From a bacterium (lineage in GTDB: Bacteria; UBA8248): a DNA stretch of 64,000 nucleotides. The stretch lies in assembly GCA_965221165.1 (NCBI GenBank), contig CBDCRP010000002.1, positions 640,001 to 704,000 of the forward strand, written 5' to 3'. Positions 16,297 to 62,125 of this stretch are shown piece by piece; position 1 is the first letter of the stretch; each line of letters begins with the position of its first letter. The notes beneath the pieces were generated by a model. The model saw only the letters and a program-made list of their open reading frames with translations. It was not told the origin of the DNA and did not search any database. Both the position numbers and the translations under genes were made by a program.

Positions 16297-16460
16297 GCAA
16301 ATCCTCCCTCACCGGTCGGCAAATCCTCCCTCACCGGTCGGCAAATCCTCCCTCACCGGTCGGCAAATCCTCCCTCACCGGTCGGCAAATCCTCCCTCAC
16401 CGGTCGGCAAATCCTCCCTCCCCGGTCGGCAAATCCTCCCTCCCCGGTCGGATTTGACCC
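16297..16460. repeat. 22-bp tandem repeat x7 ending in a complete GA-hairpin
   Basis: GCAAATCCTCCCTCMCCGGTCG x7 (16297-16450), then GATTTGACCC. Confidence 0.95.
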
Positions 16461-16507
16461 GCGAGAAGAGGGGTGCTCTCATGGATTCGGGAGCGATGAC
16501 GAGGAAT

Positions 16508-16722
16508 AATGAAAGTAATCCAATTTTCTGAAAATATCTGAAAAAGGGTGAAAAAAGGTGAAAAATTCTAAAAATTTCCGAAAAATAATCGTGAGGACAA
16601 TAAAATAATAATACATTTTGTTTCATATATTTACGATATAATATTAAAGTAAAAAAGAAATTATTTTTGGCAATTTTCGCGTATAAAAAAAAATTTCGCC
16701 TCCCGCATTTCCCCGCATTTGC
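16508..16722 (+). repeat. Phased A-tract element
   Basis: A-tracts every 10 bp; colinear homolog at 44084-44290. Confidence 0.85.
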
Positions 16723-16881
16723 GGCGCAATGCCGCCCGCCTCACGCCCCCGCTTGCCGATGGCGTTCACCGTCGCCTGAACACCCGAAGCCACCCCGCGC
16801 GTTCAGGCAAGGCGTTTCCCGTTCATGGCCGGACGTGGTATATTCGGGCCATCTTGATACGTCTTGGGAGATGCGCCATAT

Positions 16882-19695
16882 ATGGACACGAATCCTCAGG
16901 AGATCGAGGAAGTACCGGCAGAAGAGAACGGCTCGTCCATATCGACGAACGGGACAACGAACAGGGCGAACCAGGGCGGGTCCGGCGATTCGAGGTATCT
17001 GCCCGACTCGGCGGGTGCGCCCGCTTCAGAGGGTGAAACCGAACTCGACGAGATAGAAACCGACGAATGGCTGGAATCGCTCGATTACGTTCTTCAAACC
17101 AGAGGCCCCGAGCGAACGAAGACCCTCCTTCGCCATTTGCAGGTTCACGCCGTGCGCGAAGGCGTCGTTCGTCCATTTTCCGCGAACACCCCGTATATCA
17201 ACACCATTCCCCTGCAAAAGCAGCCCCCATTCCCCGGAGATCGCAATATCGAGCGGCGGATCAAGAGTCTCGTCCGCTGGAACGCGATGGCCATGGTGGT
17301 GCGCGCCAACACGGAGGACGCCTCCATCGGCGGGCATATCTCCACCTTCGCCTCGGCCGCCACTCTGCTGGAAATCGGGTTCAACCACTTCTTCCGGGGG
17401 AAAGACCACCCATCCGGCGGCGACCTCATCTACTTCCAGGGCCACAGCGCGCCCGGCATCTACGCGCGGGCATTCCTGGAGGGCCGCCTGACGGAGAAAA
17501 ATCTCGAAAACTTCAGGCGAGAACTCAGAGACGGAGGCGGCCTCTCCTCATACCCCCACCCCTGGCTGATGCCCGATTTCTGGGAATATCCCACCGTATC
17601 GATGGGACTCTCCCCCCTGATGGCGATATATCAGGCGCGCTACCTGCACTACCTGGAAGACCGCGGCCTCAAGCCGGCGACGGGCCAGAAGGTATGGGCG
17701 TTCCTCGGCGACGGCGAGATGGATGAACCCGAATCCCTGGGCGCCATCACCCTCGCCGCGCGGGAAAAACTCGACAACCTGGTCTTCGTCATCAACTGCA
17801 ACTTACAGCGTCTCGACGGCCCGGTTCGAGGCAACGGCAAAATCATTCAGGAACTCGAGGCCGCATTCCGGGGCGCGAGGTGGAACGTCATCAAGGTCAT
17901 CTGGGGGGATGATTGGGACCCCCTCGTAGCGATCGACGATGAGGGCGCGCTGCTCGAGCGAATGAACGAGACGGTTGATGGCCAATACCAGAAATACAGC
18001 GTCGAGAAAGTCAAGGAGGGCAGCTACCTGCGCGAGCATTTCTTCGGCGGCGACGAGCGATTGAAGGCGATGGCCGACACCCTGTCCGACCACCAACTCA
18101 ACAGAATGCGGCGCGGGGGGCATGATCCCGAAAAAGTGTTCGCCGCCTACCAGGCCGCCATGGAATGCGAGGGGCGCCCCACGGTCATTCTCGCAAAGAC
18201 GGTGAAAGGATATGGCCTGGGCGAGGGGGGCGAGGGCAGGAACGTCACCCACCAGCAGAAAAAGCTCAACCAGGATGAACTCCAGGAATTCCGGACGCGC
18301 TTCGAAATTCCCATGTCCGATGAAGAAGTGGCCGAGGCGCCGTTTTACCGGCCGCCGGAAGATAGCCCCGAAATCAAATACCTGAAAGCAAAACGAGAAG
18401 GGCTCGGCGGGTATGTCCCCACCCGGCAGAGCGTGTCCACTCCGCTCAAGCCGCCGCCTAACGCCTTGTTCGAGGAGTTCCTGCAAGGCACGGACGAGCG
18501 TGAAGTCTCCACAACGATGGTGTTCGTCAGAATCCTGAACAAACTGCTCCGCGACGAGGCGTTGGGCAAGCTCATCGTTCCCATCGTACCCGATGAGGCC
18601 AGGACGTTCGGCATGGAAGCCCTCTTCCGGCAAGTGGGAATCTACTCCCACTCCGGTCAGTTGTATGAGCCCGTCGACCGCGACAGCCTTCTATATTACA
18701 AAGAAGCGCAAGACGGACAGATTCTCGAAGAAGGAATCACCGAAGCGGGTTCCATGGCCTCATTCATCGCCGCCGGAACCGCCTACGCCACACATGGGGT
18801 GAACACCATCCCCTTCTATATCTACTATTCGATGTTCGGCTTCCAGCGCATCGGCGATCTCATATGGGCAGCGGCGGACATGTGCACGCGGGGCTTTCTG
18901 ATCGGGGGAACGGCCGGCAGAACCACCCTGAACGGGGAAGGCCTCCAGCACCAAGACGGCAACAGCCACCACCTCGCATATCCTGTTCCCAACCTGCTCA
19001 CATACGACCCGGCTTTCGCCTTCGAGATGGCGACCATCATTCAGGACGGGATTCGCAGGATGTATCGAGAACAGGAGAAAATCTTCTACTACCTCACCGC
19101 CTACAACGAGAATTACGCCATGCCGGCGATGCCCGAGGGAGCGAAAGACGGGATATTGAAAGGCATGTACCTCTTCAGGCGGTCGGAGGCGAATTCCGGG
19201 CTCAAAGCGCAGCTACTGGGCAGCGGCACCATCATGAACGAAGTACTCAAGGCGCAGAAAATGTTGGAGGAGAACTATTCGATTTCAGCGGATGTATGGA
19301 GCGTCACGAGTTATAAGGAACTCAGGCGAGACGCCCTCGACGTCGAGCGATGGAACATGCTGCATCCCGATTCCGCGCCGAAAACGCCCTACGTGACCCA
19401 ATGCATCTCGCGCGCGCCCGGCGTTTGCGTGGCGGCCTCGGACTATGTGAAGGCCACGCCTGATTCCATTTCGAAATGGATTCCCAAGCCCATGATTTCA
19501 CTGGGAACCGAGGGGTTCGGCAGAAGTGAGTCGAGAGCATCCCTGAGAGATTTCTTTGAAATCGACGCGCGTTATATCGTGCTCGCCACTTTATATAGCC
19601 TGGCGCGCGAGAAGAAAATATACCCCGAACTCGTGAACAAGGCGATCAAAGACTTGGATATCGACCCGGAAAAAGCCAACCCGATGATTTCCTAA
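16882..19695 (+). CDS. aceE: Pyruvate dehydrogenase E1, homodimeric type
   Basis: GGHISTFAS, YFQGH, GDGEMDE, DEARTFGM, GEGLQH. Confidence 0.96.
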   Translation: MDTNPQEIEEVPAEENGSSISTNGTTNRANQGGSGDSRYLPDSAGAPASEGETELDEIETDEWLESLDYVLQTRGPERTKTLLRHLQVHAVREGVVRPFSANTPYINTIPLQKQPPFPGDRNIERRIKSLVRWNAMAMVVRANTEDASIGGHISTFASAATLLEIGFNHFFRGKDHPSGGDLIYFQGHSAPGIYARAFLEGRLTEKNLENFRRELRDGGGLSSYPHPWLMPDFWEYPTVSMGLSPLMAIYQARYLHYLEDRGLKPATGQKVWAFLGDGEMDEPESLGAITLAAREKLDNLVFVINCNLQRLDGPVRGNGKIIQELEAAFRGARWNVIKVIWGDDWDPLVAIDDEGALLERMNETVDGQYQKYSVEKVKEGSYLREHFFGGDERLKAMADTLSDHQLNRMRRGGHDPEKVFAAYQAAMECEGRPTVILAKTVKGYGLGEGGEGRNVTHQQKKLNQDELQEFRTRFEIPMSDEEVAEAPFYRPPEDSPEIKYLKAKREGLGGYVPTRQSVSTPLKPPPNALFEEFLQGTDEREVSTTMVFVRILNKLLRDEALGKLIVPIVPDEARTFGMEALFRQVGIYSHSGQLYEPVDRDSLLYYKEAQDGQILEEGITEAGSMASFIAAGTAYATHGVNTIPFYIYYSMFGFQRIGDLIWAAADMCTRGFLIGGTAGRTTLNGEGLQHQDGNSHHLAYPVPNLLTYDPAFAFEMATIIQDGIRRMYREQEKIFYYLTAYNENYAMPAMPEGAKDGILKGMYLFRRSEANSGLKAQLLGSGTIMNEVLKAQKMLEENYSISADVWSVTSYKELRRDALDVERWNMLHPDSAPKTPYVTQCISRAPGVCVAASDYVKATPDSISKWIPKPMISLGTEGFGRSESRASLRDFFEIDARYIVLATLYSLAREKKIYPELVNKAIKDLDIDPEKANPMIS

Positions 19696-19716
19696 TTCAA
19701 ATCCCGAGGGAGTTCC

Positions 19717-21123: not shown

Positions 21124-21262
21124 AAGCGCCTGACAGGGCATGCGGGGGAAACCCATCCCCAGCACTCCAGATTCAGCGCCTCCGCTCATCATCCAATGAA
21201 ACCTCCCGGGGCACTTCGGGAAGTTGTGGTTGCCCCCGATTTCTCCTTTGGATGCCTTTTCG

Positions 21263-21841: not shown

Positions 21842-21846
21842 CGGCT

Positions 21847-23367: not shown

Positions 23368-23422
23368 ACCCTCTCCAGATTGCGAAAATCGCCTATATCG
23401 CAACAAATGCGGGTCGGTGCGC

Positions 23423-25886: not shown

Positions 25887-25917
25887 CCCAGCCTATCAGT
25901 TTTAAGGAGGCCGCCTG

Positions 25918-35021: not shown

Positions 35022-35472
35022 GTAGGGGGTCGCATATATGCGACCCCCCTTTTGTATGTTCACCCCTACGTCTTCATTTCAATTCACAGTGGCTTTTTGT
35101 AGGGGAGAACCTGTGTGTTCTCCCGTCTGCGTGGGCCGCAATGTATGCGGCCCCTACAAGCCCCGTCTCGTGAAGACTCGACCCGTAGGGACAGGACGCG
35201 ACCTGTGGGGCAGTCTCGAGATTTTCGGGCGGTCGCTGTTTTGCCGTAGGTGGCGACCCCTCCTCGGGGTCGCCGCACACATATATGCGCCCCTGCCTTT
35301 TGTCCGGGCAAGGCGCGGGCAGCATGTATGCTGCCCCTACGGTCGGTTGTGAACACGACTTTGCACGGGACGCACCCCTTCTCGGGGTCGTCCCACACAT
35401 GTATGCGGCCCCTACGGGGGGCGGATTCCCCCCTCCCCGCGACAATCGCTCCTTCCTCAGTCGCGATTGACC
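35022..35472. repeat. REP cluster (several GTAG-REPs plus one GA-hairpin at 35443-35472)
   Basis: Multiple GTAGGG.../...CCCCTAC palindromes between convergent genes. Confidence 0.8.
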
Positions 35473-35473: not shown

Positions 35474-36814
35474 TCACCGTTCATCGACGAGGCGTCGCGC
35501 CTTCACGTCGCGCATCGGGTCGTGAATCACGCCCGGGGCCACGAATTCGAGAACCGGTCTTATCATCACCGCTCCCCGCACCCGCTCCGGCAAGGACGCG
35601 CCGAGCCTCTCGCGCTCTGAATCCTCGGCTTCCAAACGGATGATCATCTCGTCCATCGAATCCGCGTCATCAGGCGCAGATTTGCGAATCCGGATCTGAA
35701 ACTCGCGAATCGCCCGCTCTTTCGCCAGGAGGTCGAAAACGATCTCGGGGTTCATCAGCATCCCGCGCACCTTGAGGAGATCGCCCGTCCTCCTCGGCAG
35801 GCGCACGATGCGCTCGCCCAGCCGCCCGCAATGCGGGCACGGCTCCCACCTGAGCGAAATGAGGTCTCCTATGAGATAGCGTAGAAACACCGTGCCCCTG
35901 CGGTGCAGGTGCGTGAGCGCTATCGCCCCCTCCTCGCCCTCGGTGACGCGCGCGCCCGTCTCGGGGTTCACCACTTCGAGCAGGTAGAGCTCGGGCACGA
36001 CGTTGTGCGGCATCGCATCGTTCGCGCACTGCACGAGGCCGCCCTGCATCTCCGTCGCCGCGTAGCGCACCCGCACCTGCGGGTCGCGCGCCCCGAAATA
36101 CCGCAAGTGATCCATATACTCCTCGCGCAGGGCGTCGCTCACCGCCTCGCCCGTGGTGAGCACCATGCGCGCGCGGGAGAGTTTGACGCCGCGCTCCCGC
36201 GCCCTCCTCAGAAACCGGCGGACGAAACTCGGCACCCCCCAGATGATGGTGGCCCCGGAATCGGCCACCACATCGAGGGCCTCATCGAGCGACCTTCGCA
36301 CGGGATACTCGGGATGCGAGCTGCCCGTCAGCGCGCTCACCACGGGAAGCCCCATGATTTCCGCCGAGCGCACGCAGCACAAAAACCCGCCCAAAGGCAT
36401 CGGCGAGAGCGGGTAGAGATTTGCGACGACGTCTCCGGCCCGCAGGCCTTCCGCCTCGTTGCAGACCCTCGCCTGGAGCATGATGTGGTACTGATCGTGC
36501 GTGGTGTTGAAAAAAGGCGAGGGCCGCCCACTCGTGGTGCCCGTGGTGTAGGCCACGTTCCACATCGTGCGCTCCTCGAAGGGAAGCTCGGGCAGCCAGG
36601 CGGGATCGAGGCTGAAATCCTCGGGCGCGGCCATGAAATCCTCTTTCCTCGTCAAGGGGATTTTCTGGAGATCGTCGAGTTCCTGTACCACATCGGGTAT
36701 CAGGTTCGCCTCCGCGAAGCGGCGCTTGTAGAACGGATGCGCGCGCCCGCACAGGGCGAGCATTCTTCGCAAGCGTTTTCTCCTCAGCTCGTGCAGCGCA
36801 TCTTGCTCGTTCAT
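35474..36814 (-). CDS. Phenylacetate-CoA ligase (PaaK)-family adenylating enzyme
   Basis: YTTGTTSGRP, TGE, YAATE, RY..GD, KVRG. Confidence 0.85.
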   Translation of the reverse strand: MNEQDALHELRRKRLRRMLALCGRAHPFYKRRFAEANLIPDVVQELDDLQKIPLTRKEDFMAAPEDFSLDPAWLPELPFEERTMWNVAYTTGTTSGRPSPFFNTTHDQYHIMLQARVCNEAEGLRAGDVVANLYPLSPMPLGGFLCCVRSAEIMGLPVVSALTGSSHPEYPVRRSLDEALDVVADSGATIIWGVPSFVRRFLRRARERGVKLSRARMVLTTGEAVSDALREEYMDHLRYFGARDPQVRVRYAATEMQGGLVQCANDAMPHNVVPELYLLEVVNPETGARVTEGEEGAIALTHLHRRGTVFLRYLIGDLISLRWEPCPHCGRLGERIVRLPRRTGDLLKVRGMLMNPEIVFDLLAKERAIREFQIRIRKSAPDDADSMDEMIIRLEAEDSERERLGASLPERVRGAVMIRPVLEFVAPGVIHDPMRDVKARRLVDER

Positions 36815-41445: not shown

Positions 41446-41630
41446 GTAGGGGACGAACCCCTCCTCGGGGTCGCCCCACACATACATGCGTCCCATGCCA
41501 TAAACGCCAAAGAGGCGCTCGACCATGAGGGCTGCCGAGGGAACCGGCCCGCATGAAGAAGCGCTCCCTTGATGAGAACTTCACGGGGAGTCGGCCCGTA
41601 TGAAAAGGGACGCATATATGCGTCCCCTAC
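41446..41630. repeat. Inverted GTAG-REP pair
   Basis: GTAGGGGACG... and GGGACGCATATATGCGTCCCCTAC. Confidence 0.75.
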
Positions 41631-41657
41631 AGGTAAACCCAGATGGGATGAAGGAGT

Positions 41658-42062
41658 ATGAAAATGACAGAGAAAACGGATGCGGAATGGCGCGAGCAAC
41701 TCACGCCGGAGCAATACCACGTCACCCGGGAGGCGGGAACCGAGCGCGCCTTCAGCGGGAAATACTGCGACTGCCATGAGGACGGGGTCTATACCTGCGT
41801 GTGCTGCGGGACGGAGCTTTTCGATGCGGGGACCAAGTTCGACTCGGGTACGGGCTGGCCGAGCTTTTATCAGCCGCTCAAGCCCGAGAACGTGGGCGAG
41901 AAGGAAGACAGATCGCTCTGGATGCGGCGCGTGGAGGTGGTGTGTTCGAACTGCGACGCGCATCTGGGCCACGTGTTCCCCGACGGCCCTGCGCCCACCG
42001 GCCTGCGCTACTGCATGAACTCGGCATCTTTGGACTTAAAACCGAAAGACGCTTCCGAATAG
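41658..42062 (+). CDS. msrB: Methionine-R-sulfoxide reductase
   Basis: [33 protein letters not shown]. Confidence 0.96.
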
Positions 42063-42160
42063 AATTCATGGGGGCATGGAGGGGCGAGTCTCGCCTCATG
42101 TGACGCCCCCTACGCAGTAATTCATGAACATTTTTTATGAAATGACAGGAGTGTATATTT

Positions 42161-42604
42161 ATGAGTATTGAGCGTTTTCATAACGTATCCCTGACGGTAA
42201 AAGACGCGGACGCATCTTCCAAATGGTACGCCGAGCACTTCGGCTTCGAGGTGGAATCCGATTCCGAGCGCACGCCGGAGTTTTCCGCGCAGGTGACGGG
42301 TGTTCCCGGCGCGCACTTGCGCGTGGTGCACATGGGCGGCCACGGGCTTCATCTAGAACTCATGGAGTACAAGGGTGCTCCGGGTGCGGCGGTAGACACT
42401 TCTCCAAACAACGCGGGCTGCCTGCAGATCGGCTTCGTGGTGGACGACGCCGAGGCCCTCTATATCAAACTGAAAGCGGACGGCACCACCATGTGCTCGC
42501 CGGAACCCGCCACCGTGCCGAGCGGCCCCATCCAGGGCTCCAAGATATTCTTCTGCAAAGACCCCGACGGCGTGGTGCTGAAATTCTTGTCGATCAGGAA
42601 GTAG
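42161..42604 (+). CDS. VOC-family protein
   Basis: H..LTV.D, LELMEY, KDPDG. Confidence 0.85.
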   Translation: MSIERFHNVSLTVKDADASSKWYAEHFGFEVESDSERTPEFSAQVTGVPGAHLRVVHMGGHGLHLELMEYKGAPGAAVDTSPNNAGCLQIGFVVDDAEALYIKLKADGTTMCSPEPATVPSGPIQGSKIFFCKDPDGVVLKFLSIRK

Positions 42605-42626
42605 GGGTTGATGACGAGAGGCCTGT

Positions 42627-42725
42627 GTAGGGGCGGCTCGCGAGCCGTGGGGCAGTCCCGAGCAATCAAGGGCGGACACATAGGTCCGCCCCTACGAATT
42701 TCTTCCTCATCGGTCGGGGTTGACC
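42627..42725. repeat. GTAG-REP pair plus a GA-hairpin copy
   Basis: REPs at 42627 and 42669-42695; hairpin at about 42696-42725. Confidence 0.75.
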
Positions 42726-42733
42726 CACGGCGC

Positions 42734-42904
42734 CGTCATTCCGGCGTATGCCGGAATCCAGAACCGAGGAGGGTGAAAATGATGCCGCGTTTCATTTTTT
42801 CTCTGGTTGGATGCAATAAAAGCGCAAAGCAAAAAACGAAAAGATAAATTCCCTGGATTCCGCAATTCCTCCCTTCTCAGTCGGGATTGACACCGGAATA
42901 ACGG
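42734..42904. repeat. ~165-bp CGTC-REP-bounded MITE/BIME-like element, copy 1
   Basis: CGTCATTCCGGC.. ends; internal AAAACGAAAAGATAAATTCCCTGGATTCCG shared with 52028-52190. Confidence 0.8.
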
Positions 42905-43217
42905 CAATATCGAGGCGGCTCGCTAGGCAGGACTCGGTCCTCCGAGATTCAACTCCCTCCATCCTCGCTCTGCCTGAAGCACAGGCTCAAGAGCAACAGA
43001 ACGAACGCCGCGAGGCTCGCGAGGGTGCCGACTTCGGAGCGAGGTCTTGCCCCCCGGCCTTGAAATCCGGGGACAAACCAAACCAGATCGACATTGATTT
43101 ATTTGTGATATCATTGCGCCCTGGGTTGTTTGTGGTTTTGTTCCCTGGATGAGATTGGCGATATCCGCGAGAAATACCTGAGTCGAACAGCTTTCCTTAT
43201 GGGGGGAGGATCTAATC

Positions 43218-43718
43218 ATGAAAAAGATTATCTCTGCACTGTTTGTGCTTTTGGCATCCGTGAGCGTGGCGAACGCCGCCGAGTATTTACAGGCGTCCTC
43301 CACCATTACCCAGTGCCCGGGCACGAAGCCCGCGGTGGTCAAGATAGACGTGACGGATGCGGCCAATGGCGTCGCCATGAAAAACAACAAGATAACCGTG
43401 AGCAAAGCCGGGCCGTATCTCATCGTCGCCGCCCCCCAGGTCGGGCGCGAAGGCGCGGGGCCCCTCGGCTGTTTCGACCTGTGGCTGCGCGTAAACGGGA
43501 AGGACGTGGGCAATTCCAACGTGCAGCTTTGCCAGGACGCCGGCAGCAGGGCGAAGGACGTCATCGTATCGCAGGGAATCGTCCCGCTGGCGGCGGGTGA
43601 TGCGCTGGAAGTGATGATGTCGGCCAACAACCCGAAGGCGAAGATCTGCATCGAGGCCATCCGGCCGCCCGGCGAACCATTGGTGCCTTCGATTATCTTC
43701 ACGATGGTCAAGTATTGA
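43218..43718 (+). CDS. Secreted all-beta protein, possible C1q/TNF/BclA-CTD-like fold
   Basis: GGAGG RBS, signal peptide, ITV.KAG.YLI, LRVNG, L.AGD.LEV; 4 Cys. Confidence 0.6.
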   Translation: MKKIISALFVLLASVSVANAAEYLQASSTITQCPGTKPAVVKIDVTDAANGVAMKNNKITVSKAGPYLIVAAPQVGREGAGPLGCFDLWLRVNGKDVGNSNVQLCQDAGSRAKDVIVSQGIVPLAAGDALEVMMSANNPKAKICIEAIRPPGEPLVPSIIFTMVKY

Positions 43719-43728: not shown

Positions 43729-44290
43729 GTAGCGGCGGACCCCGAGGAGGGGTCCGCCCCACGGTTCGCAGCCCTCCCCTCTACGAGGGCGAGCAATCCC
43801 TCCCTCTTCCGTCGGGATCGATCCACGGCGCCTCACCCACGCATCTGCACGCATTTGCCGTGACCCCTGAATTTCCGGGATTCGGTATCGTGTGCGCCGC
43901 ACTGGGTCAAACCCGACTGATGAAGGAGGGTTTGCCGACCGAGGAGGAAGGGGCTGCCCGACCGAGGAGGAAGCGTTTCATCAGGGCAGGGCCGATGTAG
44001 CAAGCAAATCTTTCTTGGCCGTTTGATAAGGCCAGGGTCGGCGAAATGACGAAATTCCTCGTAGCCGTTTCATATGGGAAGATAATGAAAATAATCATAT
44101 TAAGTGAAAATATCTGAAAATAGGTGAAAAAAGGTGAAAGTAAGTGAAAAATTCAGAAAATTTTAGAGAAACGATAACATATTATATTTCATGTATTTAC
44201 GCCGTATATATGAAGTAAAAAAGAAACGAATTTCGCCGGTTTTCGCATAAAAAAAAATTTTTCAGCCCCCTGCAATTGCCCGCATTTGCA
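43729..44290. repeat. Composite of REP, GA-hairpins and a phased A-tract element
   Basis: Hairpins at 43794, 43904, 43937, 43960; A-tracts 44107-44160; CGCATTTG boxes near 43850 and 44281. Confidence 0.8.
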
Positions 44291-45404: not shown

Positions 45405-46418
45405 TCATATTTTCCTGAGCTCCGGCATGAGTTCGTCCGAGATCATCCGCATGCTGTGCAGCGACGTGGAAAGAGGCATTCCCGCCCAATGCGTCCGGAT
45501 GATGAGGTGATTCACGCCGACTTCCTCCCAATAGGGGCGAAGCTGCTCGAAGCACTCCTCGGGCGAGCCGATGATGAAGCGATCCTTCAGGAGATCGTCG
45601 AATTCCTGATCGAACGACTCATCCTCGGGCATCGCGTCGTCCTGGCCCCATTTGGCGTAGTCCTTGTATTTGCCGAACAGATAGGGCCCCGCCATCTCGA
45701 GGGCGGTCTTCTTGTCACGACTGCAAAAAACTTCCTTCATGCAGGGAAAGTCCGCCGGAAAAGGCTTGCCGCATCGCTCGAGTTCCGCCCGGTAGAGCTC
45801 CATCTGGCGCTTGATGGTCGCCGTGGTCGAATGGGGGTTGATGAACCAGTTATCGCCTATGCGCGCGGCGCGCTCGATGGCTTTGTCGTTGTTCGCGGCC
45901 ACCCAAATCGGCGGATAGGGCTTCTGAACGGGGCGGATGTTCATACCCACGCCGTCGAGCTTACACAAGTCGCTCTCCCAGGTGACTTCTTCTTCGGTCC
46001 ACAATCGCTTCACGAGTTCGAGACATTCCTCGAACCTGCGCACGCGGTGGCCCTTCGGCACCCGGAACGCGTCGAACTCCTTGTCGCGGTAGCCCAGGCC
46101 GATTCCGAACACGAAATTCCCTCTACAAATCACGTCGAGCGAGGCCACCGTCTCGGCGACGTAGACTGGGTTGTGGAGGTTGATGAGCAGGATGCCCAGC
46201 CCCAGCGTCATCTCGCCCGCTTCTGCGTGAAGGCGCGCCAGAAAGGGCACGATCTGAAGTTGTTTGTTGTTGCCCTCGTTCAGGTAGTGCTGCCCGGTGA
46301 AGAGCGAATCCCAGCCCTTGTCGCGCGCGAGGCGCACCATCGCGTACTGCTCATCCAGGGCACTGACCATGTCGGTTTCCAAGTGTTGCTGGTTGGTGAT
46401 GAAAAGACCTACTTTCAT
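45405..46418 (-). CDS. LLM-class flavin-dependent oxidoreductase
   Basis: AETVASLD, G.GLGYR..EF, P.Q.P.PPIWVA. Confidence 0.9.
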   Translation of the reverse strand: MKVGLFITNQQHLETDMVSALDEQYAMVRLARDKGWDSLFTGQHYLNEGNNKQLQIVPFLARLHAEAGEMTLGLGILLINLHNPVYVAETVASLDVICRGNFVFGIGLGYRDKEFDAFRVPKGHRVRRFEECLELVKRLWTEEEVTWESDLCKLDGVGMNIRPVQKPYPPIWVAANNDKAIERAARIGDNWFINPHSTTATIKRQMELYRAELERCGKPFPADFPCMKEVFCSRDKKTALEMAGPYLFGKYKDYAKWGQDDAMPEDESFDQEFDDLLKDRFIIGSPEECFEQLRPYWEEVGVNHLIIRTHWAGMPLSTSLHSMRMISDELMPELRKI

Positions 46419-46515
46419 GTCGTGTTCCTATGTTGATGGGTGGTAGTTGGGCGTACCATACCGCAAGGCTCTTCATATTTCTATGCACAGGAGGCTTCGT
46501 TGTGTGATGCGGAAG

Positions 46516-47005
46516 AGGTCAAACCCTCCCTCCCCGGTCGGCAAACTCTCCCTCTTCGGGCCTATTGAAAAACCCCCTCAAGGGAAAAATGCCTGCGGCG
46601 CATTCGCCGCCCCGGCGCGTAATACCTCCCTCGTCGGTCGGCAAACAAATCCTCGCTCCTCACCTCGGATTTGACATTCATCACTCGCGTCAAACACTCA
46701 TTTCTCACTCGCGTTTGATCCGCGACGTATTCGCCGCCCTGGCGGCGAATACCTCCCTCATCCCGAGTAGGCGCGCTCGCGCGCCGTATCGAGGGTTTGA
46801 CCCTACCGAGGAGGGAGGGTCAAACGGGGCCCTTCGATACAAACGCTCCTTTCTCAGTCGCGTTTGACCTTCGGCGGCTACTCAGGGTGAGGTCGATACG
46901 GCGGCATGCAAAACGAGGGTTTGACGCGACCGATGAGGGAGCGTCAAATGCGCTCGCTCCCAGGACCGGGTTTTTCAACAACCCCTCCCCGGTCGGGTTT
47001 GACCC
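46516..47005. repeat. Cluster of about 10 GA-hairpin repeats
   Basis: Hairpins at 46520, 46625, 46646, 46691, 46795, 46840, 46920, 46976 and others. Confidence 0.85.
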
Positions 47006-47006
47006 C

Positions 47007-47330
47007 CTACCAGCGCATGGTTCCCTTCAGGGCGACCCCGTGGACGGGGTCGCCGCGTTCGCTCTCGCGCAAGTCTCCCTCGAGGCTCATGGTGAGGGAC
47101 TCGGCGAGCCTGAAGCGCCCGCCGGCTCGGTATGTCTGCCCGCCTTGCGCGACCGTGAGGCCGGTGTATGGCGTCAGGAGGCCGCCCAGGTAGTCCAGGC
47201 CGTAGCCCACCTCGGCCTCGAAGCTCGCGGCGCCCGGCTCGAAGTCCCCCTCGCGGACGAGGCCCGCCGCCGTACGCTGCGACCAGAGGCGGTCCGCGCC
47301 TCCCGAGGCCGCGCCCCACGGCCAGGCGAG
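47007..47330 (-). pseudogene. C-terminal remnant of an autotransporter-like beta-barrel protein
   Basis: EAEVGYG...LTPY.G.., amphipathic strands, terminal Trp. Confidence 0.6.
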
Positions 47331-51331: not shown

Positions 51332-51800
51332 ATGCGCAGGGGTTTTAATGAATCCGCTTTCGTTTTGATTACATATTACAGAAATCGAATATCAATCGAG
51401 ATTCGAAAAAACAAATATCTAAAATAGTTTCAATAAACTACAAGGATTTGATGGTCGATGGGAACAGCTCAATGTATCTAATTTATCGAAAGACACGTTT
51501 AATTTATAGAAAACCATCGTGAATTTATCGATATTTTTCGAAATTCCCGAATTTCTCTGATTCCCCTCCTTTCGGCCCCGCTCATCTTAGGCCACCCCAA
51601 AATTTCCGGCCCCGAATATTCGGAAACCCCTACAAACACCCACGCCGGCAAATGCGGGCGAATGCGCAGTTGTCGTGATGTAAAAAATCCTGAAAAAAAG
51701 AGAGAAATCGGTGAAAAAAGGGGTAGTTTATGCGAGAGAATCGGGAGGTTTTTCCGAGCGAATCGCGTGGACCAGGCCCGACCGATGAGGGAGGTCTTCC
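51332..51800. repeat. AT-rich composite: homolog of 4365-4519, T-tracts, GCAAATGCG box, GA-hairpin
   Basis: 43-bp match to 4477-4519; box at 51648-51666; hairpin loop at 51780-51792. Confidence 0.7.
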
Positions 51801-51895: not shown

Positions 51896-52027
51896 CGTCA
51901 TTGAGGCCCACTACTGGCAATCCCGGCCAAAGATGGAGGGATTGTTCCGACCGACCGTAGGGACAGGTCGCGAATTGTGGGGCAGCCCCAAGGAAGGGCC
52001 GCCACTACGGGGAAAGAGAAAACTGGC

Positions 52028-52190
52028 TCGTCATTCCGGCGCATGCTGGTGGCAACCGCGAGGTTGACCAGAACCGATGAGGATGAAGACATTGTAGTAT
52101 TTCATTCCCTCTACTGGGCGGCAATGGCGGCGAAAAGCATAAAACGAAAAGATAAATTCCCTGGATTCCGGCATACGCCGGAATGACGGA
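52028..52190. repeat. CGTC-REP-bounded element, copy 2
   Basis: Colinear with 42734-42904; right end GGATTCCGGCATACGCCGGAATGACG. Confidence 0.8.
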
Positions 52191-52443
52191 CGAGGACGTC
52201 AGACCCGTCGGCAAGTGGGGAGTGGGCGGTGGTTGCGGCGATCTCCTTTGCGCGCTCCCTATCCTACAACCGCAAATGGGGGAAATTGCAAAGATACATC
52301 GAACCGACCTTCTGTTTCGGACAAAAAAAAGCGACTGGGCTTTTAGGGCCTTGGGCCCTAAGACGAGACGCTTGGCGACTCATCCCAGACGCTATTTGAC
52401 TCTAAAAGGATCATTACACTGAAATCAAGTCAACACCCCCCCA

Positions 52444-53907
52444 TTAATATCCATCATCCGCATATCTACCCGGAGTGGGCGTGGCGCCTGTTTTGGCCGT
52501 TTCGATGACGTGGGCGCGTCCGCCGAGGCGTTCGATCAGCGCCGCTTGATCGCGTTTAGCGCACGCATCCACCTCTTCGGGGTCGAGAATTTCACGCAAG
52601 GAGCCTTCGAGTTCATTAATGAGCGGTTTGCTCTCGGGCTTCCCGGCGACGTCATCTTGTTCTTCGGGGTCGTTTCCCATGTCATACAACTCGGGCGGAT
52701 AGTCCACGTAGTGGATGTACTTCATCCGGCCTTTTCGGATGAGGTAAGCCGCCGTCTCGGCGCCCGAGGCGTGGTATTCGCTTAAAACGACGCGTTTTGC
52801 GTCATAGGGTGCGCGCGCGATTTCATAGAGCGAACGGCCCGCGCGGCTCCTGTCCTCATCGTTAGGCGTCACGCCCACCGATTCGAGAATCGTGGGATAA
52901 AAATCAAGGAGCGAAACGGGCGTTTCGACCACCCCGCCTGCTTCCAGGTCCGGCCCCGCCATCATGAGCGGCACGGCGGCCGATTCCTGGTACATCGTGC
53001 CCTTTCCCCAGGTGCCCCGCGCCCCTAAGTTCTCGCCATGATCGCTCGTGAAGAATATGCGGGTGGAATCCCGCAAACCCGCGCGCGCTAGGCAATCCAG
53101 TACGCGGCCCACCAGATCGTCCAAAAACGTGCAAAGCCCGAAATAGGAAGCGATGGCGACGCGTCTTCGCTCATCATCGAAGAAGCTGTCTGAGGGCACG
53201 TATTTCCGGTACGCCTCTATCCACGGATGTTGCGGGCGGCCATCGAGCGCGTGGGCCTTGGGCATGGGCACGGAATCGGTCGGGTACATGTCGAAATAGG
53301 CTTGCGGCGCCATCAGGGGAAAATGGGGCGAGACGAAGGAGACGAACGTCATCCAGGGCTTCCGGCTGTCGCTATATCTTTCCGCCTCGTTCTCGAGCCA
53401 CGCGCACGCCTTCTCGGTGATGTCCAGATCGTAATTCGAATAACTCGTCTCGCCCGGGCCGATCTCGCGCGCGAGCTTATCCGCCTTCTGTACGATCAAC
53501 TCATCGCGGATGGAGCCGAGCACGCTGCCCACGCCCCCGTCGCGCGCGTGCATGGGTACGATTTGCTCATCGAAACCGGTAGGGTCGGTGGGGTTCCTGT
53601 AGTGGAACTTGCCGATGGAAGTGACGCAGTTGCCCTCGGCCTGCAAACGATGTCCCCAGCCGGCGGGGGTGCCCGTATAGGGACTGGCGTTATCCCAACA
53701 GCCGATCTCGTGAACGTAGCGGCCCGTGGCGAAGCTCGCCCGCGCGGCCGTGCAAATCGGGGAATTCGTATAGGCGCCCGTGAACCGCGCGCCCGAGGCC
53801 GCCAGACGGTCGATGTTCGGTGTTTGCACCATCGGGTGTCCGTAGCAGCCGAGCGTTTTGACGCTCAACTCATCCGCCATGATGATGAGCAAATTCATCG
53901 GTTTCAT
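52444..53907 (-). CDS. Formylglycine-type sulfatase (choline-sulfatase-like)
   Basis: N.L.I.ADE, CTAAR..FATGRY, GKFH, SDHG. Confidence 0.9.
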   Translation of the reverse strand: MKPMNLLIIMADELSVKTLGCYGHPMVQTPNIDRLAASGARFTGAYTNSPICTAARASFATGRYVHEIGCWDNASPYTGTPAGWGHRLQAEGNCVTSIGKFHYRNPTDPTGFDEQIVPMHARDGGVGSVLGSIRDELIVQKADKLAREIGPGETSYSNYDLDITEKACAWLENEAERYSDSRKPWMTFVSFVSPHFPLMAPQAYFDMYPTDSVPMPKAHALDGRPQHPWIEAYRKYVPSDSFFDDERRRVAIASYFGLCTFLDDLVGRVLDCLARAGLRDSTRIFFTSDHGENLGARGTWGKGTMYQESAAVPLMMAGPDLEAGGVVETPVSLLDFYPTILESVGVTPNDEDRSRAGRSLYEIARAPYDAKRVVLSEYHASGAETAAYLIRKGRMKYIHYVDYPPELYDMGNDPEEQDDVAGKPESKPLINELEGSLREILDPEEVDACAKRDQAALIERLGGRAHVIETAKTGATPTPGRYADDGY

Positions 53908-55855: not shown

Positions 55856-55867
55856 CCCCGCTCCTCC

Positions 55868-56953: not shown

Positions 56954-57048
56954 GCGTCACAAGTCCACCGAATCCTGCATCAGATACGATAAGGGCTGCG
57001 GAGGCCTCCGAAAAAGCCTCCGCAGCCCCGGGAAACAAGTCGAAAAAC

Positions 57049-58059: not shown

Positions 58060-58180
58060 CTTTTTTTCCTCCTACTGGAAAATGAAAATAAAACACACAG
58101 CTTCCTTCAAGTAGCCGTTCTTCCTCTGCCTGGATTCGGAAAGTATGTCATAGATGCCCTCAGATTGCATCAAGCAGAAC

Positions 58181-58995
58181 TCAAAGCCGCATCAAGTCCT
58201 CACCGGCGATGATGGGGCCTTCGAAATAAGGCGCAATCGCCTCGCGCACCTTATCGTTCGGCGCCAGGGGAGGAACGACGTGTGAGAAAACGAGCATCCC
58301 GACGCCGGCCTGCGCCGCCGTTTTCCCGACTTCTTCCGCCGTGGCGTGATGGGCCGCTACGATCTTCGCCGTGGCTCTGAAACTTCCGAACCTCTCGTCT
58401 ATCAACTCAGGCAAACATGGGTGCATCACCAAAACGTCCGCCCCAAGTGCCAAGGGGACCAGCTTTTCCGTGGGGCTGCCGTCGCTCGCGATGACGATCT
58501 TTCTGCCCTCCGCCTCGAATGCGTAGGAGATGATGTCGTCTACGTTCCCGTGGCGCGTGCCCTATCCACGCGGATAGCGATGCCGTCCACCTCAAATGCA
58601 TCGCCGGGTTCGAGGACGGTTACCTCGATCTCGGTTCCCGCCCTGGGCTTTCCCTCGTTCGCCCTGAGATCGATGTCGTACTCGTAATAATGGAGCATAC
58701 GCTCGACTATCTCCTCCACGGGCGACGGGCCGTAGACCTTGAGCGGCGTTGATGCGCCCATGATCCAGCGCGAGATAAAGAACTCCCCGAAACCCGTGTA
58801 GTGATCGGAGTGAAAATGCGTGAAAAACAGGTGGTCCACACTGTTCACATGAAATCCCGACTTCACGATTTGGGTCGCGGCATGGCGGGCTGCGTCCACC
58901 AGATAGAGTTTCCCGCCTTTTACGATGACGTTGCACGGGCCGCTTTTTTGAGGAGTCGGCGGCGGCGCACCCACTCCCAGGAGTATGAGTTCCAA
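58181..58995 (-). CDS. RNase Z/arylsulfatase-like MBL hydrolase, one frameshift near 58560
   Basis: LLG.G.P, THFHSDH; C-terminal HHAT and SHVVP in a shifted frame. Confidence 0.8.
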
Positions 58996-59110
58996 AACAG
59001 GGTTTCCTCCCCTTCACGAAAGTAGATATGTGTCTTGCCGTAACGGATTCTTGGGGGTATTCTTGCGCAAATATCCTCGTTCACGTCAACCAGAAGAGAG
59101 AGAAGCCCAT

Positions 59111-59971
59111 ATGGATCGTCTATCCGAACACCTATACGCAGAAACCGCCTACGACTGGGCGAACGTGGGCGCCGCCGTCACGGAAAGCGGCGTCCTCCTC
59201 CTCGACTCCCCGGTGCGGCCGAGCGATTCGCGCAAGTGGCAAGAAGAAGTCTCACGCTTAAGCCCCCTGGGCATGCGCTACCTCATCGCCACCGATTATC
59301 ACGGCGACCACACGACCGGCTCCTCCTTCATCGAAGGGGACGTCGCCCGCATCGCCCCCCAATACGTCTACGATGAAATATCGAAGGGCGATAACGCTTT
59401 TTCCAAGGAAATTTTCGTGAAAACGCTGAGAGACTTAGGCTTCGTAGAGGAGGCGGATGAAATCGAAAACACCGCCGTTCCGCTGCCTCAGTTCTGTTTT
59501 GAAGACAGCCTCATCCTGCATCTGCCGCCCCTCACGTTCGAGATTCACCGGAAAGGCGGCCACTCCCCCGCATGCACGTCCGTTCTCGTGCCCGAGGAAG
59601 GGGTGCTCTTCTCCGGAGACGTCGTCATCAACGGCCCCTCGGCCGGAATGCGCGACGCCCATGTGGGCGAATGGATAGAGGCGCTCACCTGGGTGGAAAA
59701 TCTCGACATCGAGACCATCGTCCCCGGCCACGGCGATATATGCGGCAAAGAGGTTGCCACGGAGCTTAAAGATCGCCTGAGCGGGATGATGGAGATCATG
59801 ACTGAGGTCATCAGCGCCGGAAAACAGAAGGCGGAAGCCACCGAGGACCCGAAATTCCTGAAATATTTTCATGCCGACGACTCGCGCGGCGCATACTGGT
59901 TCCAGCAGAGGAAAGACACTTTCCGCGATGGTCTGGAGCGGCTGTTTGATGAGGTCGTCGCTGAGACCTAG
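59111..59971 (+). CDS. MBL-fold metallohydrolase (cyclase-like)
   Basis: TDYHGDH, GHSP, FSGD, VPGHG. Confidence 0.85.
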   Translation: MDRLSEHLYAETAYDWANVGAAVTESGVLLLDSPVRPSDSRKWQEEVSRLSPLGMRYLIATDYHGDHTTGSSFIEGDVARIAPQYVYDEISKGDNAFSKEIFVKTLRDLGFVEEADEIENTAVPLPQFCFEDSLILHLPPLTFEIHRKGGHSPACTSVLVPEEGVLFSGDVVINGPSAGMRDAHVGEWIEALTWVENLDIETIVPGHGDICGKEVATELKDRLSGMMEIMTEVISAGKQKAEATEDPKFLKYFHADDSRGAYWFQQRKDTFRDGLERLFDEVVAET

Positions 59972-60008
59972 AGAAGACCGGGGCTTCATCACCGAAAAGG
60001 AGACGTAG

Positions 60009-60434
60009 ATGAGAGTAGAAGAAAAAAGACTGGGCCGCATCTTTCGCGTCACGCTCGAGGCCGGAGACAATTTTTATACGAATTTATGTAACCTCGTGAA
60101 GGAGAAGAACATCCGTGCGGGCTCGGTTTTCCTCATCGGCGCTCTCGCCGAGACGGACATGATATCGGGCTTCAAGAGCATGGACGGCTACGACGTCGAC
60201 CGCCTGCACTTCGAGGGCTGGCGCGAACTCGTGGCTCTCGGGAACATTACCTGGCCGAACGAGCCGCCCCTCGCCCTAGGCGACGTGAACTGGGACGAAC
60301 CCGAGCCTTACGTTCACGTGCACATGGCCATCAGCGGCGGCCCGGGCGAGCCGGAAAAGGTCCTGGCGGGACACCTGAGCGACGGCACCATCAAAGGCAT
60401 GGTCGTCGAAATCTATGAGCACTTAGAAGCCTAG
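60009..60434 (+). CDS. PPC/DUF296 domain protein
   Basis: IGAL, E...LGNI, HVH, GHL. Confidence 0.8.
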   Translation: MRVEEKRLGRIFRVTLEAGDNFYTNLCNLVKEKNIRAGSVFLIGALAETDMISGFKSMDGYDVDRLHFEGWRELVALGNITWPNEPPLALGDVNWDEPEPYVHVHMAISGGPGEPEKVLAGHLSDGTIKGMVVEIYEHLEA

Positions 60435-60495
60435 ATGCGTTCTTGATCCCCAGCGGTTCATGGCCGCTTGAGAGTGTTTCCCAAAGAATGAAACG

Positions 60496-61634
60496 ATGAA
60501 CGACACACCCCTCGAAAATCTCCCTTTCGCGCCCAGCGAAGACCCCTTCGTCGTGGAGCACGGGGGCTTCTACCGGCGATGGTTCTACATGATCGAGGAC
60601 ATCAAGGAACTCAAAATCGCCGTGGCCTCCCTCGAGGGCACGACCGACGACCTCTGGGCGCCAGTTTGGCTTAAGATAGGCCAACGCTATGAAACAATCG
60701 CGGAAGAACTCGCCGCCGGTGGGGACGCTTCCGCCGCGCGCAAAAAATTTCTCCTCGCCAAGACTTATTACAGCATCGCGCGATTCCCCCGCCCCATCAC
60801 TATGCTCAAAGAACAAGCCAACGAGGTCTGCATTCGCGCGTACTTGAAATCATGCGAGTTCCTCGATCCGCCGCTGGAAGTCGTCGGCGTGGAATGCGCG
60901 GAAAAAACCATCACCTCTCATTTTCGCGCGCCTAAAGACGCAAGCGCGGAAAACCCCGCACCCGCCGTCCTCATCATGTGCGGCGGGGACATGTTCAAAG
61001 AAGATCGCGGCTGGGCGGGCGAAATGGCCCTGGAGCACGGCCTCGCCACGCTGGTGATGGACGGCCCCGGCACGGGGGAGAACCCATTTCCCTACAAACC
61101 GGAGTCCGTGGTCGCATGGAAGGCGGCTATCGACTACCTGTCCGCCCGTCCCGAGGTGGACGCAGGGCGCATCGGCGCGTTCGGCATCAGCAGGGGCGGG
61201 CATTCCGTGATGCTGATCGCGGGTTCTTATCCCGAGAAGGTGCGCGCGGCCGTCGCCAGCGCGGGCCATCACTTCGGCTACCGCATGACGCAGGCGGAAA
61301 TGGCGAACTACGTCGCCAACAGGAACAGGCGCGCCGCCTACATCTTCGGCGCGCCCGGAGACGGCCCCTCTTTTCCCGAAACCACTATCGAGAAAGAAGA
61401 GGAACTATTCGAGCGATGGTCGCTCAGCGAACTGGGCCTGGTGGAGAAATCGTCTGCCCCGTCTTCATGATCAATGGAAAGCAGGATCACCTCGCCCCCG
61501 TCGGGAACATCTACTACATGCTCGAGCACGGCCCCGTCACCGGCAAGGAGGCGCGCATCTATCCCGACGATGGCCACTGCGCCTTCAAATACTTCGAAGG
61601 GTGGGCTCCCGAATCGTTCCGCTGGCTGCGGTGA
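60496..61634 (+). CDS. Alpha/beta hydrolase (FrsA/2,6-dihydroxypseudooxynicotine hydrolase-like), frameshift near 61449
   Basis: DGPG.GE, GISRGG; catalytic D and H (G..D, DGHC) in the next frame. Confidence 0.8.
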
Positions 61635-61639
61635 AAATT

Positions 61640-61820
61640 GGGGTAAATCATTTAAAAACAACATCTTAAATTTTCCTTAATTTTTCGTATTTTTTCGTAT
61701 TTTTTCGTATTTTTCACTTATTTTCAGAAATTCATTTCCGACTCATCCTTCCTCCCGCGACGTCACCATACCGAAGGCCGAGATTCAGCGGCCTACCACA
61801 AATGCGGGCAAATGCGCGGG
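61640..61820 (-). repeat. Phased T-tract element (reverse orientation)
   Basis: TTTTTCGTAT x3 at 10-bp period; CAAATGCGGGCAAATGCG. Confidence 0.75.
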
Positions 61821-62125
61821 TGAGGCTGCGTGGGAGCAAGCCCGACCTGGAAAGGATTGCCCAGGGTTTTGCTCCTGTAGAGGACGCGTATAGCTTCCCT
61901 TTCCATCGAAGAAGGAAGCCATATCCAACCGAGGAGGGGCGCATCTATGTGTCCCTTACGACACGAACCGCGAGCAAACGCGCGTCTCCTACGCCTATCG
62001 CCGATGTTCCCTCCGCCAAACGCCACATAGCTTCACCTCATCGAAGCGATGTATAATTCATCCACCGCACCGGCCGCCTGGCGCCGATCATTTCTTCATC
62101 CCATTTCTAAAACCAGGAGGCAGCC

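Follow-up and report, generated by a model that had tools for sequence, protein, structure and literature searches.

What is a hairpin that returns again and again between the genes of an uncultured bacterium: a piece of DNA that moves, a signal meant for RNA, or the residue of replication and recombination? The question is raised by a stretch of 64,000 nucleotides (positions 640,001 to 704,000 of contig CBDCRP010000002.1, assembly GCA_965221165.1, GTDB lineage UBA8248), hereafter the window, in which a first-pass annotation, made from the letters alone, had singled out a dispersed hairpin with covarying stems. In each unit of this repeat a (G/T)GTC-like tag precedes a 7-bp stem, the middle four pairs of which may vary provided that they still pair, and the arms enclose 13 nt of conserved purine sequence, the loop. 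We find that it forms a real family, structurally constrained, numerous, restricted to a single genus, intergenic with the distribution typical of repetitive extragenic palindromic (REP) sequences, and variably present at orthologous sites. The best overall explanation is, in our opinion, that of a genus-specific family of REP-type extragenic palindromes. Taken together with the spread and the retention that we propose below, we hold this explanation to be probable, if some way from secure.

A conserved loop on a changing stem

The genome to which the window belongs (G000, a 3.69-Mb assembly in three contigs, C1 to C3, with 59% G+C, 96% completeness and a contamination estimate of 8.5%) contains 198 exact copies of the 13-mer GACYGRNRARGGA, 80 of which are flanked by contiguous pairing of at least 7 bp outward from the loop. 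In the window the exact 13-mer is found 15 times, to be compared with a mean of 0.21 in dinucleotide-preserving shuffles, none of which reached 15 in 100 trials; allowing for one mismatch brings the number of matches to 28, for 5.4 expected. We defined as hairpins those sequences that combine a loop with at most one mismatch and at least 6 of 7 pairs, or a loop with two mismatches and 7 of 7 pairs. There are 196 of these in the genome and, together with the exact 13-mers that lack arms, they make 284 units in 143 loci, 78 of them singletons. All told, the genome holds about 140–200 hairpins and some 90 arm-less array units. The annotation had counted at least 15 copies of the stem-13 nt-stem arrangement in the window. 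The 15 loops are there, but not as many complete hairpins: seven of the 15 are the units of one array, in which a single one has both arms. A covariance model, run with its filters off, retains 11 full-length hairpin matches in the window at E < 0.01, five of them being rows of its own training set.

Read on the purine strand, 92 perfect copies yield the consensus RRGGT-CAAWCSC-GACYGANGARGGA-GSGWTTG-C. Its tag is well defined, with G at −9 in 87 copies, T at −8 in 88, C at −7 in 84 and A at −6 in 82, in line with the earlier remark that many copies start with GGTCAA. The C of the tag is followed by A-T at the first position in 82 of the 92 copies and at the second in 62. On the other side, the stem is followed by C in 66 copies, while the next base is mixed (C 33, G 26, A 20, T 13). 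The purine-rich sequence RRGGT precedes about half of the hairpins. It is the loop, not the stem, which is the conserved part of the unit: 8 of its 13 positions are strictly conserved across species with genes 85% identical, and the 152 fully paired hairpins of the genome (7/7 pairs, wobble allowed) display 47 distinct perfectly paired combinations of arms.

The two arms of the stem change together. A pattern in which the loop and the outer stem bases were fixed, and the four inner stem positions left as N, was scanned through public genomes, one per species. This retrieved 105 hairpin instances, 62 of them distinct, which were aligned with five pattern-fitting copies of the window to give 67 rows. 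In this alignment 94.5% of the cells are paired, versus 77.6% after shuffling the letters of the 3′ side, and none of 500 shuffles attains the observed value. The covariation score is 0.473, versus 0.168 in the shuffled sets (again 0/500) and 0.04–0.14 when the partners are slid by 1–3 columns. Changes on both sides are seen at all five variable pairs, namely the four inner pairs of the stem and the inner pair of the loop, Y4-R10. The unpaired cells, 5–7 per variable pair, belong mostly to rows such as L004, L007, L073 and L088; three of these four are records of other phyla, apparent chance matches that were kept in the count. The alignment argues strongly that the covariation proposed for the stem and for the inner pair is real, with the understanding that the shuffle control ignores relatedness. 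Within the 198 exact genomic 13-mers, the inner pair Y4/R10 is C-G in 106 cases, T-A in 64, T-G in 20 and C-A in 8. A compensatory change in the loop is visible between genomes at the site orthologous to position 35443 of the window, where GACTGAGGAAGGA in G000 stands for GACCGAGGAGGGA in G007, the pair going from T-A to C-G.

The predicted minimum-energy structure is the same on both strands, and it is the fold that the annotation had drawn: seven base pairs, a 2x2 GA/GA internal loop, two base pairs and a loop of five nucleotides (z-scores −2.7 to −3.8). The 13-nt loop is predicted to close further with two G.A pairs and two Watson–Crick pairs, leaving a GRNRA pentaloop at the apex.

A family restricted to one genus

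The exact pattern has 77 occurrences in the genome of the window. Of the other 22 genomes of its genus, 18 contain it, and none of 18 genomes sampled outside the genus does; a reversed control pattern gave no match in any of the genomes scanned. The covariance model was applied next. In G000, where 150 candidates were scored, at least 136 match at E ≤ 0.01. When 51 genomes of the phylum were scanned, with 125 candidates scored in each, the model matched in all but one of the 22 further members of the genus: 16 carry at least 38–120 copies and six have 0–7. No match appeared in 19 genomes from other genera of the family, and beyond the family only one of nine genomes responded, weakly. Viral contigs, scanned for the repeat, gave none. 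The public records which contain the pattern are titled 'MAG: Nitrospinota bacterium', 'uncultured Nitrospinaceae bacterium' or 'MAG: bacterium'.

The annotation had not recognized any described family. Indeed, no match to Rfam 15 was found over the whole window at gathering thresholds, and in its densest region (46300–47200) the best candidate has an E value of 0.35, at 19 bits for a threshold of 88. A literature search on five of the loop 13-mers returned unrelated primer matches only, and another one, on Nitrospinota and sponge symbionts, found nothing on such repeats.

Between genes, and just after stop codons

Most copies are located between genes: 170 of the 196 hairpins are intergenic and 26 lie inside called open reading frames (ORFs). 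The intergenic regions that carry them (n = 109) are tandem in 55 cases, convergent in 39 and divergent in 15, where 61, 21 and 27 would be expected from their extent in base pairs (p = 4e-5). The divergent regions contain 21 hairpins. In tandem regions 43 hairpins have the orientation of the flanking genes and 39 the opposite one. There is no bias with respect to the replication strands either, with 94 hairpins on the plus and 93 on the minus strand of the two large contigs, whose replication strands are strongly skewed.

The end of genes, by contrast, is strongly oriented. Within 0–10 nt after a stop codon, 23 hairpins start in the sense orientation, that is, with the purine strand as the coding strand, versus a single one in the antisense orientation (p = 3e-6). 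From −30 to +80 nt around the stop, 40 are sense and 14 antisense. The adjoining stop may be TGA, TAG or TAA, in variable register, at 1–7 nt from the stem. It is the gene's own stop, because it is kept in relatives devoid of the hairpin and because stop triplets upstream of the other copies occur at background level. A stop-like target motif (T-R-R) was considered and is rejected on this count, as a stop triplet lies upstream of 39 of the 171 copies that are not next to stops, versus a background of 21%. A preference for RRGGT does not explain the bias by itself: nine of 122 intergenic RRGGT sites next to stops are occupied, versus 79 of 3760 elsewhere, a 3.5-fold difference (p = 0.0016). At two gene ends, C3:944554 and C3:945369, a family hairpin follows the stop directly in all four species compared, with stems that differ and are still complementary (CAGACCC/GGGTTTG, CGGTTCC/GGAACCG, GAATCCC/GGAATTC).

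This situation brings to mind another explanation, in which the repeat would first of all be a functional RNA motif, a protein-binding hairpin of the boxB kind in 3′ untranslated regions, with tandem sheared G.A pairs and a GNRA-like pentaloop, recruited to the ends of many genes, while dispersal of the DNA would be secondary. The oriented placement after stops just described, its maintenance in four species with compensatory changes in the stem, and the conservation of the loop rather than of the stem all speak in its favour. So does the predicted stability of the RNA: for three copies the purine strand folds at −12.6, −15.2 and −12.2 kcal/mol, versus −8.7, −11.7 and −8.3 for the complement, so that in 3/3 copies the purine strand is the more stable one by 3.5–3.9 kcal/mol. 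We nevertheless consider this explanation rather unlikely, since most copies are away from stops, tandem regions show both orientations, 21 hairpins are in divergent regions and 26 inside called ORFs, and Rfam has no match for the motif; furthermore, the arm-less tandem units and the nesting of hairpins in other palindromes, presented below, look like events at the level of DNA. A further test exploits the fact that what reads as a wobble on one strand becomes an A.C mismatch on its complement. Among stems that carry one mismatch, 17 are wobbles on the purine strand and 12 are of the A.C type (p = 0.46), which shows no excess that would betray strand-specific selection. For the inner pair of the loop the corresponding figures are 20 and 8 (p = 0.036), in counts that include non-independent array units.

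The annotation had proposed that the fold is specific to one strand, a claim that finds support only in part. The predicted stability in RNA and the 23 to 1 ratio at stop codons agree with this view, whereas the wobble test, the orientation in tandem regions and the symmetry between replication strands do not; neither does folding with DNA parameters, which gives −7.2 and −7.6 kcal/mol for the purine strand versus −6.5 and −6.4 for its complement, a difference of just 0.7–1.2 kcal/mol. As for the likeness to boxB of phage lambda, we take it to reside in a purine pentaloop, GNRNA, closed by a Y-R pair, the closest copies being those with CUGAAGAAGG. The present family differs from a nut site in being a genome-wide repeat in both orientations, and no N-like protein or context of antitermination was seen, though no search aimed at one was made.

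Copies in the window

All the pairs of arms that the annotation had quoted are present in the window: CAAATCC/GGATTTG at 16430, CAATCGC/GCGATTG at 35443, CAAACCC/GGGTTTG at 43908, GTTTGACCC/GGGTCAAAC at 46795, CAAACGC/GCGTTTG at 46840 and TTTGACGC/GCGTCAAA at 46920. At the far end of the range that it had given, by contrast (about 61900–61940), there are only degenerate look-alikes, which the covariance model does not score.

The first copies make a tandem array (16297–16459, minus strand). It comprises one complete hairpin (arms at 16430–16436 and 16450–16456, loop at 16437–16449, GGT tag at 16457–16459; 51.9 bits), followed on the 3′ side of the purine strand by six units of 22 nt, each made of loop, 3′ arm and CC. 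Tandem Repeats Finder describes 16297–16451 as 7.0 copies of period 22 with 99% matches; all seven 13-mers are exact, and the arm-less units give loop-only matches to the model. The second locus is a single hairpin (35443–35472, minus strand), CAATCGC / GACTGAGGAAGGA / GCGATTG with a GGT tag, the best match of the model in the whole genome (56.8 bits). It starts 4 nt after the TGA stop (35474–35476, minus strand) of a 1341-nt ORF.

Several of the following copies have diverged. A weak one at 42689–42732 (minus strand; 20.2 bits, E 0.004, not in the training set) contains a one-mismatch 13-mer at 42703–42715. At 42855–42899 (minus strand, loop at 42870–42882, 44.1 bits) the arms are CAATCCC/GGAATTG, with one C.A mismatch which a change in the G005 orthologue restores to a pair; a CGTC-type palindrome (ATTCCG...CGGAAT) encloses this hairpin within its stem. 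The copy at 43788–43830 (minus strand; 23.4 bits, E 0.0006, not in the training set), with loop GACGGAAGAGGGA, is conserved in G005. Next to it, at 43904–43978 on the plus strand, a complete hairpin with a GGGT tag, CAAACCC / GACTGATGAAGGA / GGGTTTG, is followed by two units of loop and arm (53 bits; period 23, 3.0 copies). In G005 the same flank carries a family hairpin in the opposite orientation.

The densest region opens with two units of loop and arm without a complementary 5′ arm (46517–46561, minus strand, a loop-only match). It continues with a composite repeat of about 420 bp (46565–46985, no strand assigned), which self-BLAST finds in seven further full or partial copies in the genome. 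The model matches five hairpins in it, at 46640–46683, 46685–46727 and 46834–46876 on the minus strand, and at 46787–46827 and 46911–46953 on the plus strand; in the last two the arms are flipped relative to the loop. Then comes a variant in which the 3′ arm of the purine strand is replaced by TTGTTGAAAAA (46973–47011, minus strand; 35.6 bits, not in the training set). The same variant is found at the site orthologous to 35443 in G003, G018, G014 and G020. A lone exact 13-mer with only two flanking pairs (51780–51792, plus strand, a loop-only match) ends the series.

We also note that this DNA, of 60% G+C, is interrupted by AT-rich islands, often located by clusters of hairpins (16510–16560, 44094–44161, 51479–51531 and 61671–61724). 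Their motifs are TAAGTGAAAAAATCTGAAAA, with a period of 20, TAATTTATCGAAAAACATCGT and TTTTTCGTAT.

Turnover and higher-order forms

Comparison of orthologous sites shows that copies are variably present. At the site of the 35443 hairpin, the element abuts the same ...TGAG flank in six of 12 genomes and is absent from the six others; the stretch beyond the first arm varies between genomes. Among six genomes compared, the hairpin at C2:383002 exists in G000 only, and that at C2:383813 in three. The assembly itself contains two versions of a segment of about 45 kb (C2:1–45000 and C3:63772–110458), in inverted order and with 83–96% identity. It may be that a second strain or species was folded into the assembly, which fits the contamination estimate, or that the duplication is real. 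This segment provides one pair of filled and empty sites, ...CTTGAGGGTC|AATTCC-loop-... versus ...CTTGAGGGTC|GGGGGAATG, where the sequence is shared up to the first A on the side of the stem. The pair suggests that GGTC may belong to the target and not to the moving part, and no target duplication is visible in it. Short-read contigs of two DNA runs that cover the stretch are broken at the repeats and provide no usable joints of this kind.

The family also builds larger forms. Arrays are always organized as arm-loop-arm followed, on the purine strand, by n x (loop + 3′ arm + 1–4 nt), with a period of 21–24. A CRISPR array was considered and rejected, as the units are directly adjacent at this period, without spacers. 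Neighbouring units are more often on the same strand (102 adjacent pairs) than converging (25); among the latter, pairs with a spacing of 43 nt recur seven times and have extended inverted flanks. Hairpins often start in the ...GAGG of an earlier loop and create chains such as GACCGATGAGG-GTCAATCGC-loop. In G000, 15 copies lie inside the stem of canonical CGTC palindromes. In G020, two family hairpins make an inverted doublet of 150 bp, with terminal inverted repeats of about 38 bp ending in GTAG-GGGGGG, and about half of the best 30 hairpins of that genome belong to this form. The doublet at L181:1476–1623 has 13–14 similar loci and was recently amplified. Finally, when eight copies of the composite of about 420 bp are aligned, hairpin modules are found to be swapped or missing, and intergenic regions at large are mosaics of at least three palindromic families.

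Such mosaics might lead one to think that the repeat has neither function nor dedicated mobility, and arises as a side effect when short palindromic modules slip, recombine ectopically and convert one another, its arms being kept complementary by correction of the DNA within hairpins and not by selection. Arrays that are internally 99% identical, composite copies that differ by swapped modules, a loop turned around with respect to its arms in eight of the 152 hairpins with full pairing, and mismatch types that are symmetric between strands are all what one would expect from processes of this kind. They leave unexplained, however, the hundred or so copies that each genome carries at unrelated loci, the 23 to 1 ratio of orientations at stops, the depletion from divergent regions and the strict maintenance, in species whose genes are 85% identical, of eight loop positions out of 13. 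We find this view improbable.

Likeness to known systems

REP sequences of the CGTC superfamily are the obvious term of comparison, and the annotation had thought of a distant relationship with them. As described by Di Nocera, De Gregorio and Rocco in 2013, they comprise an unpaired CGTC, TGTC or CCTC tag, a stem of 8–9 bp whose first two pairs are A/T, a loop of 4–5 nt and a 3-nt tail, mostly CCA, without a transposase; head-to-head dimers predominate and clusters are rare (PMC3733652). According to the same authors, REPs lie within 20 bp of the end of upstream ORFs, and are enriched between convergent and unidirectional ORFs (PMC3733652). The general plan is shared: a short palindrome, a tag ending in GTC, A-T pairs after the tag, a short C-rich tail, an apical loop of 5 nt provided that the predicted inner pairs are included, sub-families whose stems change in complementary fashion, a location near the 3′ end of ORFs and between convergent or unidirectional ones, and no associated transposase among the genes examined. 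The details differ. Here the tag is GGTC (TGTC only in the 16 nested copies counted for this purpose), and its C is paired with the G that closes the stem. The continuous stem has 7 bp, or nine Watson–Crick pairs with the predicted inner ones, broken by a 2x2 GA/GA, and 13 nt of conserved purine sequence separate the arms where the described loops have 4–5. As a tail we find C or CC in place of CCA. Clusters and tandem arrays are common, and neighbours on the same strand outnumber converging ones. Finally, the family belongs to one genus, with records titled Nitrospinota, a phylum that a word search of PMC3733652 does not find. The suggested kinship holds for plan, placement and lack of transposase; it fails for tag and tail, and apparently also for stem length, loop length and clustering. 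We would place the repeat next to the CGTC superfamily, as a variant of its own.

Canonical CGTC REPs are also present in this genome, as CGTCATTCCGG-N6-CCGGAAT-CCA, with 50 complete hairpins and 188 occurrences of the 9-mer CGTCATTCC. One of this type is at 42732–42765 of the window. In metagenome contigs the depth displays spikes of about 100-fold at 42671–43337 and 52009–52675, which suggests a repeat common to many organisms of the sample.

The second term of comparison is the GTAG kind, REPs and REPINs that are mobilized by RAYTs (Bertels and Rainey, 2011, PMC3116915; PMC3733652). They have in common with the present family that they are non-autonomous palindromes, found either singly or as spaced inverted doublets, persistent in lineages and adjacent to stop codons; the 150-bp doublets of G020 even carry GTAG at their outer ends. 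Our hairpin, by contrast, has no GTAG tag, its conserved part is the loop, and no RAYT is found in the genome. Membership in this system is rejected: the hairpin lacks GTAG, the profile PF01797 has no match in the genome, and the Y1-like genes of relatives are not flanked by the repeat. A second palindromic family of this genome does bear a GTAG tag (GTAGGGGCGGAC...GTCCGCCC). It is seen in the window at 16177–16290, 35148–35415, 41446–42695, 51852, 63069 and other places; its sequence GTAGGGGNNG occurs 15 times in the window, for 1.1 expected, and 355 times in the genome, where no RAYT gene was found.

Two structured elements were also considered. The hammerhead ribozyme has an invariant core, CUGANGA ... 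GAAA, and three helices around its cleavage site. A subset of our loops contains the heptamer CUGAUGA (CTGATGA), but core positions vary (U4 to C, A6 to G, G8 to A), the element is a single hairpin without a three-stem junction and there is no Rfam match, so that this identification is rejected. A reading as attC sites is likewise rejected on structure.

In search of a partner gene

The annotation had anticipated that the fold is recognized by a nuclease, a transposase or an RNA-binding factor. No result supports such a partner, whether as a Y1 gene of the HUH class or as a recurrently adjacent family of enzymes. RAYTs in particular are rejected as mobilizers, as they are absent here and not flanked by the repeat in relatives. 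Of the PF01797 loci of relatives, six were checked and the 13-mer is absent from all; the two best loci are also devoid of GTAG and CGTC repeats. We observed that a Y1-like gene of about 168 amino acids lies beside an integrase fragment in G005 (L108) and in G007 (L109), flanked by none of the three families of repeats; the G007 match contains a TAG stop. The Y2_Tnp profile had no match in the genome, but its control was silent as well. Contig C1, which is rich in arrays, was considered as a plasmid with a Rep or a relaxase, but the 44 ORFs scanned in it encode housekeeping proteins (HisRS, PurA, TatC, ThiC and UvrD among them); it is ordinary chromosome, and we reject this view.

The sole family enriched beside hairpins is that of ankyrin-repeat proteins, with six of eight paralogues. 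These are not enzymes, and are probably marks of variable regions. The six, with signal peptides, lie by hairpin clusters at C2:380960–381853, C2:1047110–1049049, C2:1266753–1270511 and C3:1658921–1661877. One orthologue begins 40 nt after the upstream stop in G007, G022 and G005, and is separated from it by about 1.1 kb of repeats in G000. The ten genes with hairpins on both sides include ankyrin-repeat genes and a predicted 166-amino acid ORF with an apparent N-terminal signal peptide, and no enzyme family.

These results bear on a further explanation, where the loop would be the nick or recognition site of a single-stranded DNA endonuclease (an HUH Rep, a relaxase, a transposase-like enzyme or one of another class) that copies hairpins, the stem serving to present the loop. 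Hairpins with conserved loops are indeed nick sites of HUH enzymes, as in the origins of rolling-circle replicons and the ends of IS200/IS605 elements. An invariant loop on a covarying stem is what such an enzyme would ask for. The hairpins that often begin in the ...GAGG of an earlier loop hint at self-targeting, and the one filled/empty pair indicates insertion beside a short purine motif without visible duplication. Set against this are the lack of a Y1 HUH transposase in the genome, the lack of any gene flanked by inverted copies in the manner of RAYTs, and the equality of replication strands (94 and 93), where IS200/IS605-type elements would be biased. We give little credence to this explanation.

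How the family may spread and persist

Considering all this, we return to the idea of REP-type palindromes proper to one genus. Copies would probably spread as non-autonomous DNA, via a folded single-stranded intermediate, and this would be the reason why pairing, rather than sequence, is kept in the stem. They would land beside purine-rich ...RRGGT sites, those in the loops of earlier copies included. Arrays of loop and 3′ arm would then grow locally, by replication slippage between short CC-GAC repeats, a mechanism that we propose because such a repeat flanks the unit on both sides. Copies that happen to be in the sense orientation 1–7 nt after a stop would be retained, the transcribed hairpin of the purine strand acting on the 3′ end of the mRNA, through its stability or an effect coupled to termination, in the way described for other REPs. 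Liang, Rudd and Deutscher are said to have discussed in 2015 REPs near stop codons in connection with ribosome stalling. The moving enzyme would be something other than a RAYT encoded in this genome.

A number of observations weigh against this picture. Several pertain to the enzyme: PF01797, the Y1 transposase profile of the RAYT family, has no match in a genome that is 96% complete, while control genomes respond, and in the genus as a whole it is found, weakly to moderately, in 11 of 23 genomes without tracking the repeat. The TnpB profile has no match in the genome of the window either, and no multi-copy family of transposases or other proteins was found there. The single reverse transcriptase, a 658-amino acid ORF with motifs of the group II intron type (C3:1276839–1277540, locus L177), is not near hairpins. 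Others pertain to the movement. No empty site with both flanks conserved was found, as the intergenic DNA is too rearranged among the closest relatives (genes about 85–95% identical); such a site would define the exact mobile unit and any target duplication. The copies of the composite differ by replacements, not by clean insertions, and fit recombination as well as transposition. Finally, the placement counts depend on crude gene calls, obtained from ORFs and codon usage (3335 ORFs, 86% coding), and the bias at stop codons could not be replicated in G020, where the best 30 hairpins, about half of which are the one amplified doublet, include one sense and no antisense copy after stops.

What the repeat may tell us

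We may finally consider a double life of the repeat: as DNA, a mobile module copied by a class of enzymes new to REPs; as RNA, a boxB-like hairpin of the purine strand, stabilized by G.A pairs and read by a host protein. This is quite unlikely as a whole, and it is worth spelling out because of what would follow. Were it true, dozens of genes with a hairpin 1–7 nt after their stop would make up a post-transcriptional regulon whose wiring is the work of a mobile element, and the case would bear on the way in which CGTC-type REPs, devoid of transposase, spread.

The matter extends beyond this organism. REP-type repeats are widespread, yet their origin and spread are understood only for the GTAG kind and its RAYTs, while the CGTC kind is without a known mobilizing enzyme. 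With an invariant loop and a stem that covaries freely, the present family is useful in this respect. Species with high and low copy number stand side by side within one uncultured genus, a contrast that suits phyletic profiling for the gene responsible. For the annotation of these genomes, the family explains the intergenic mosaics that break their short-read assemblies. And the copies that directly follow stop codons in one orientation make it possible to test whether a mobile hairpin acts on the ends of mRNAs.

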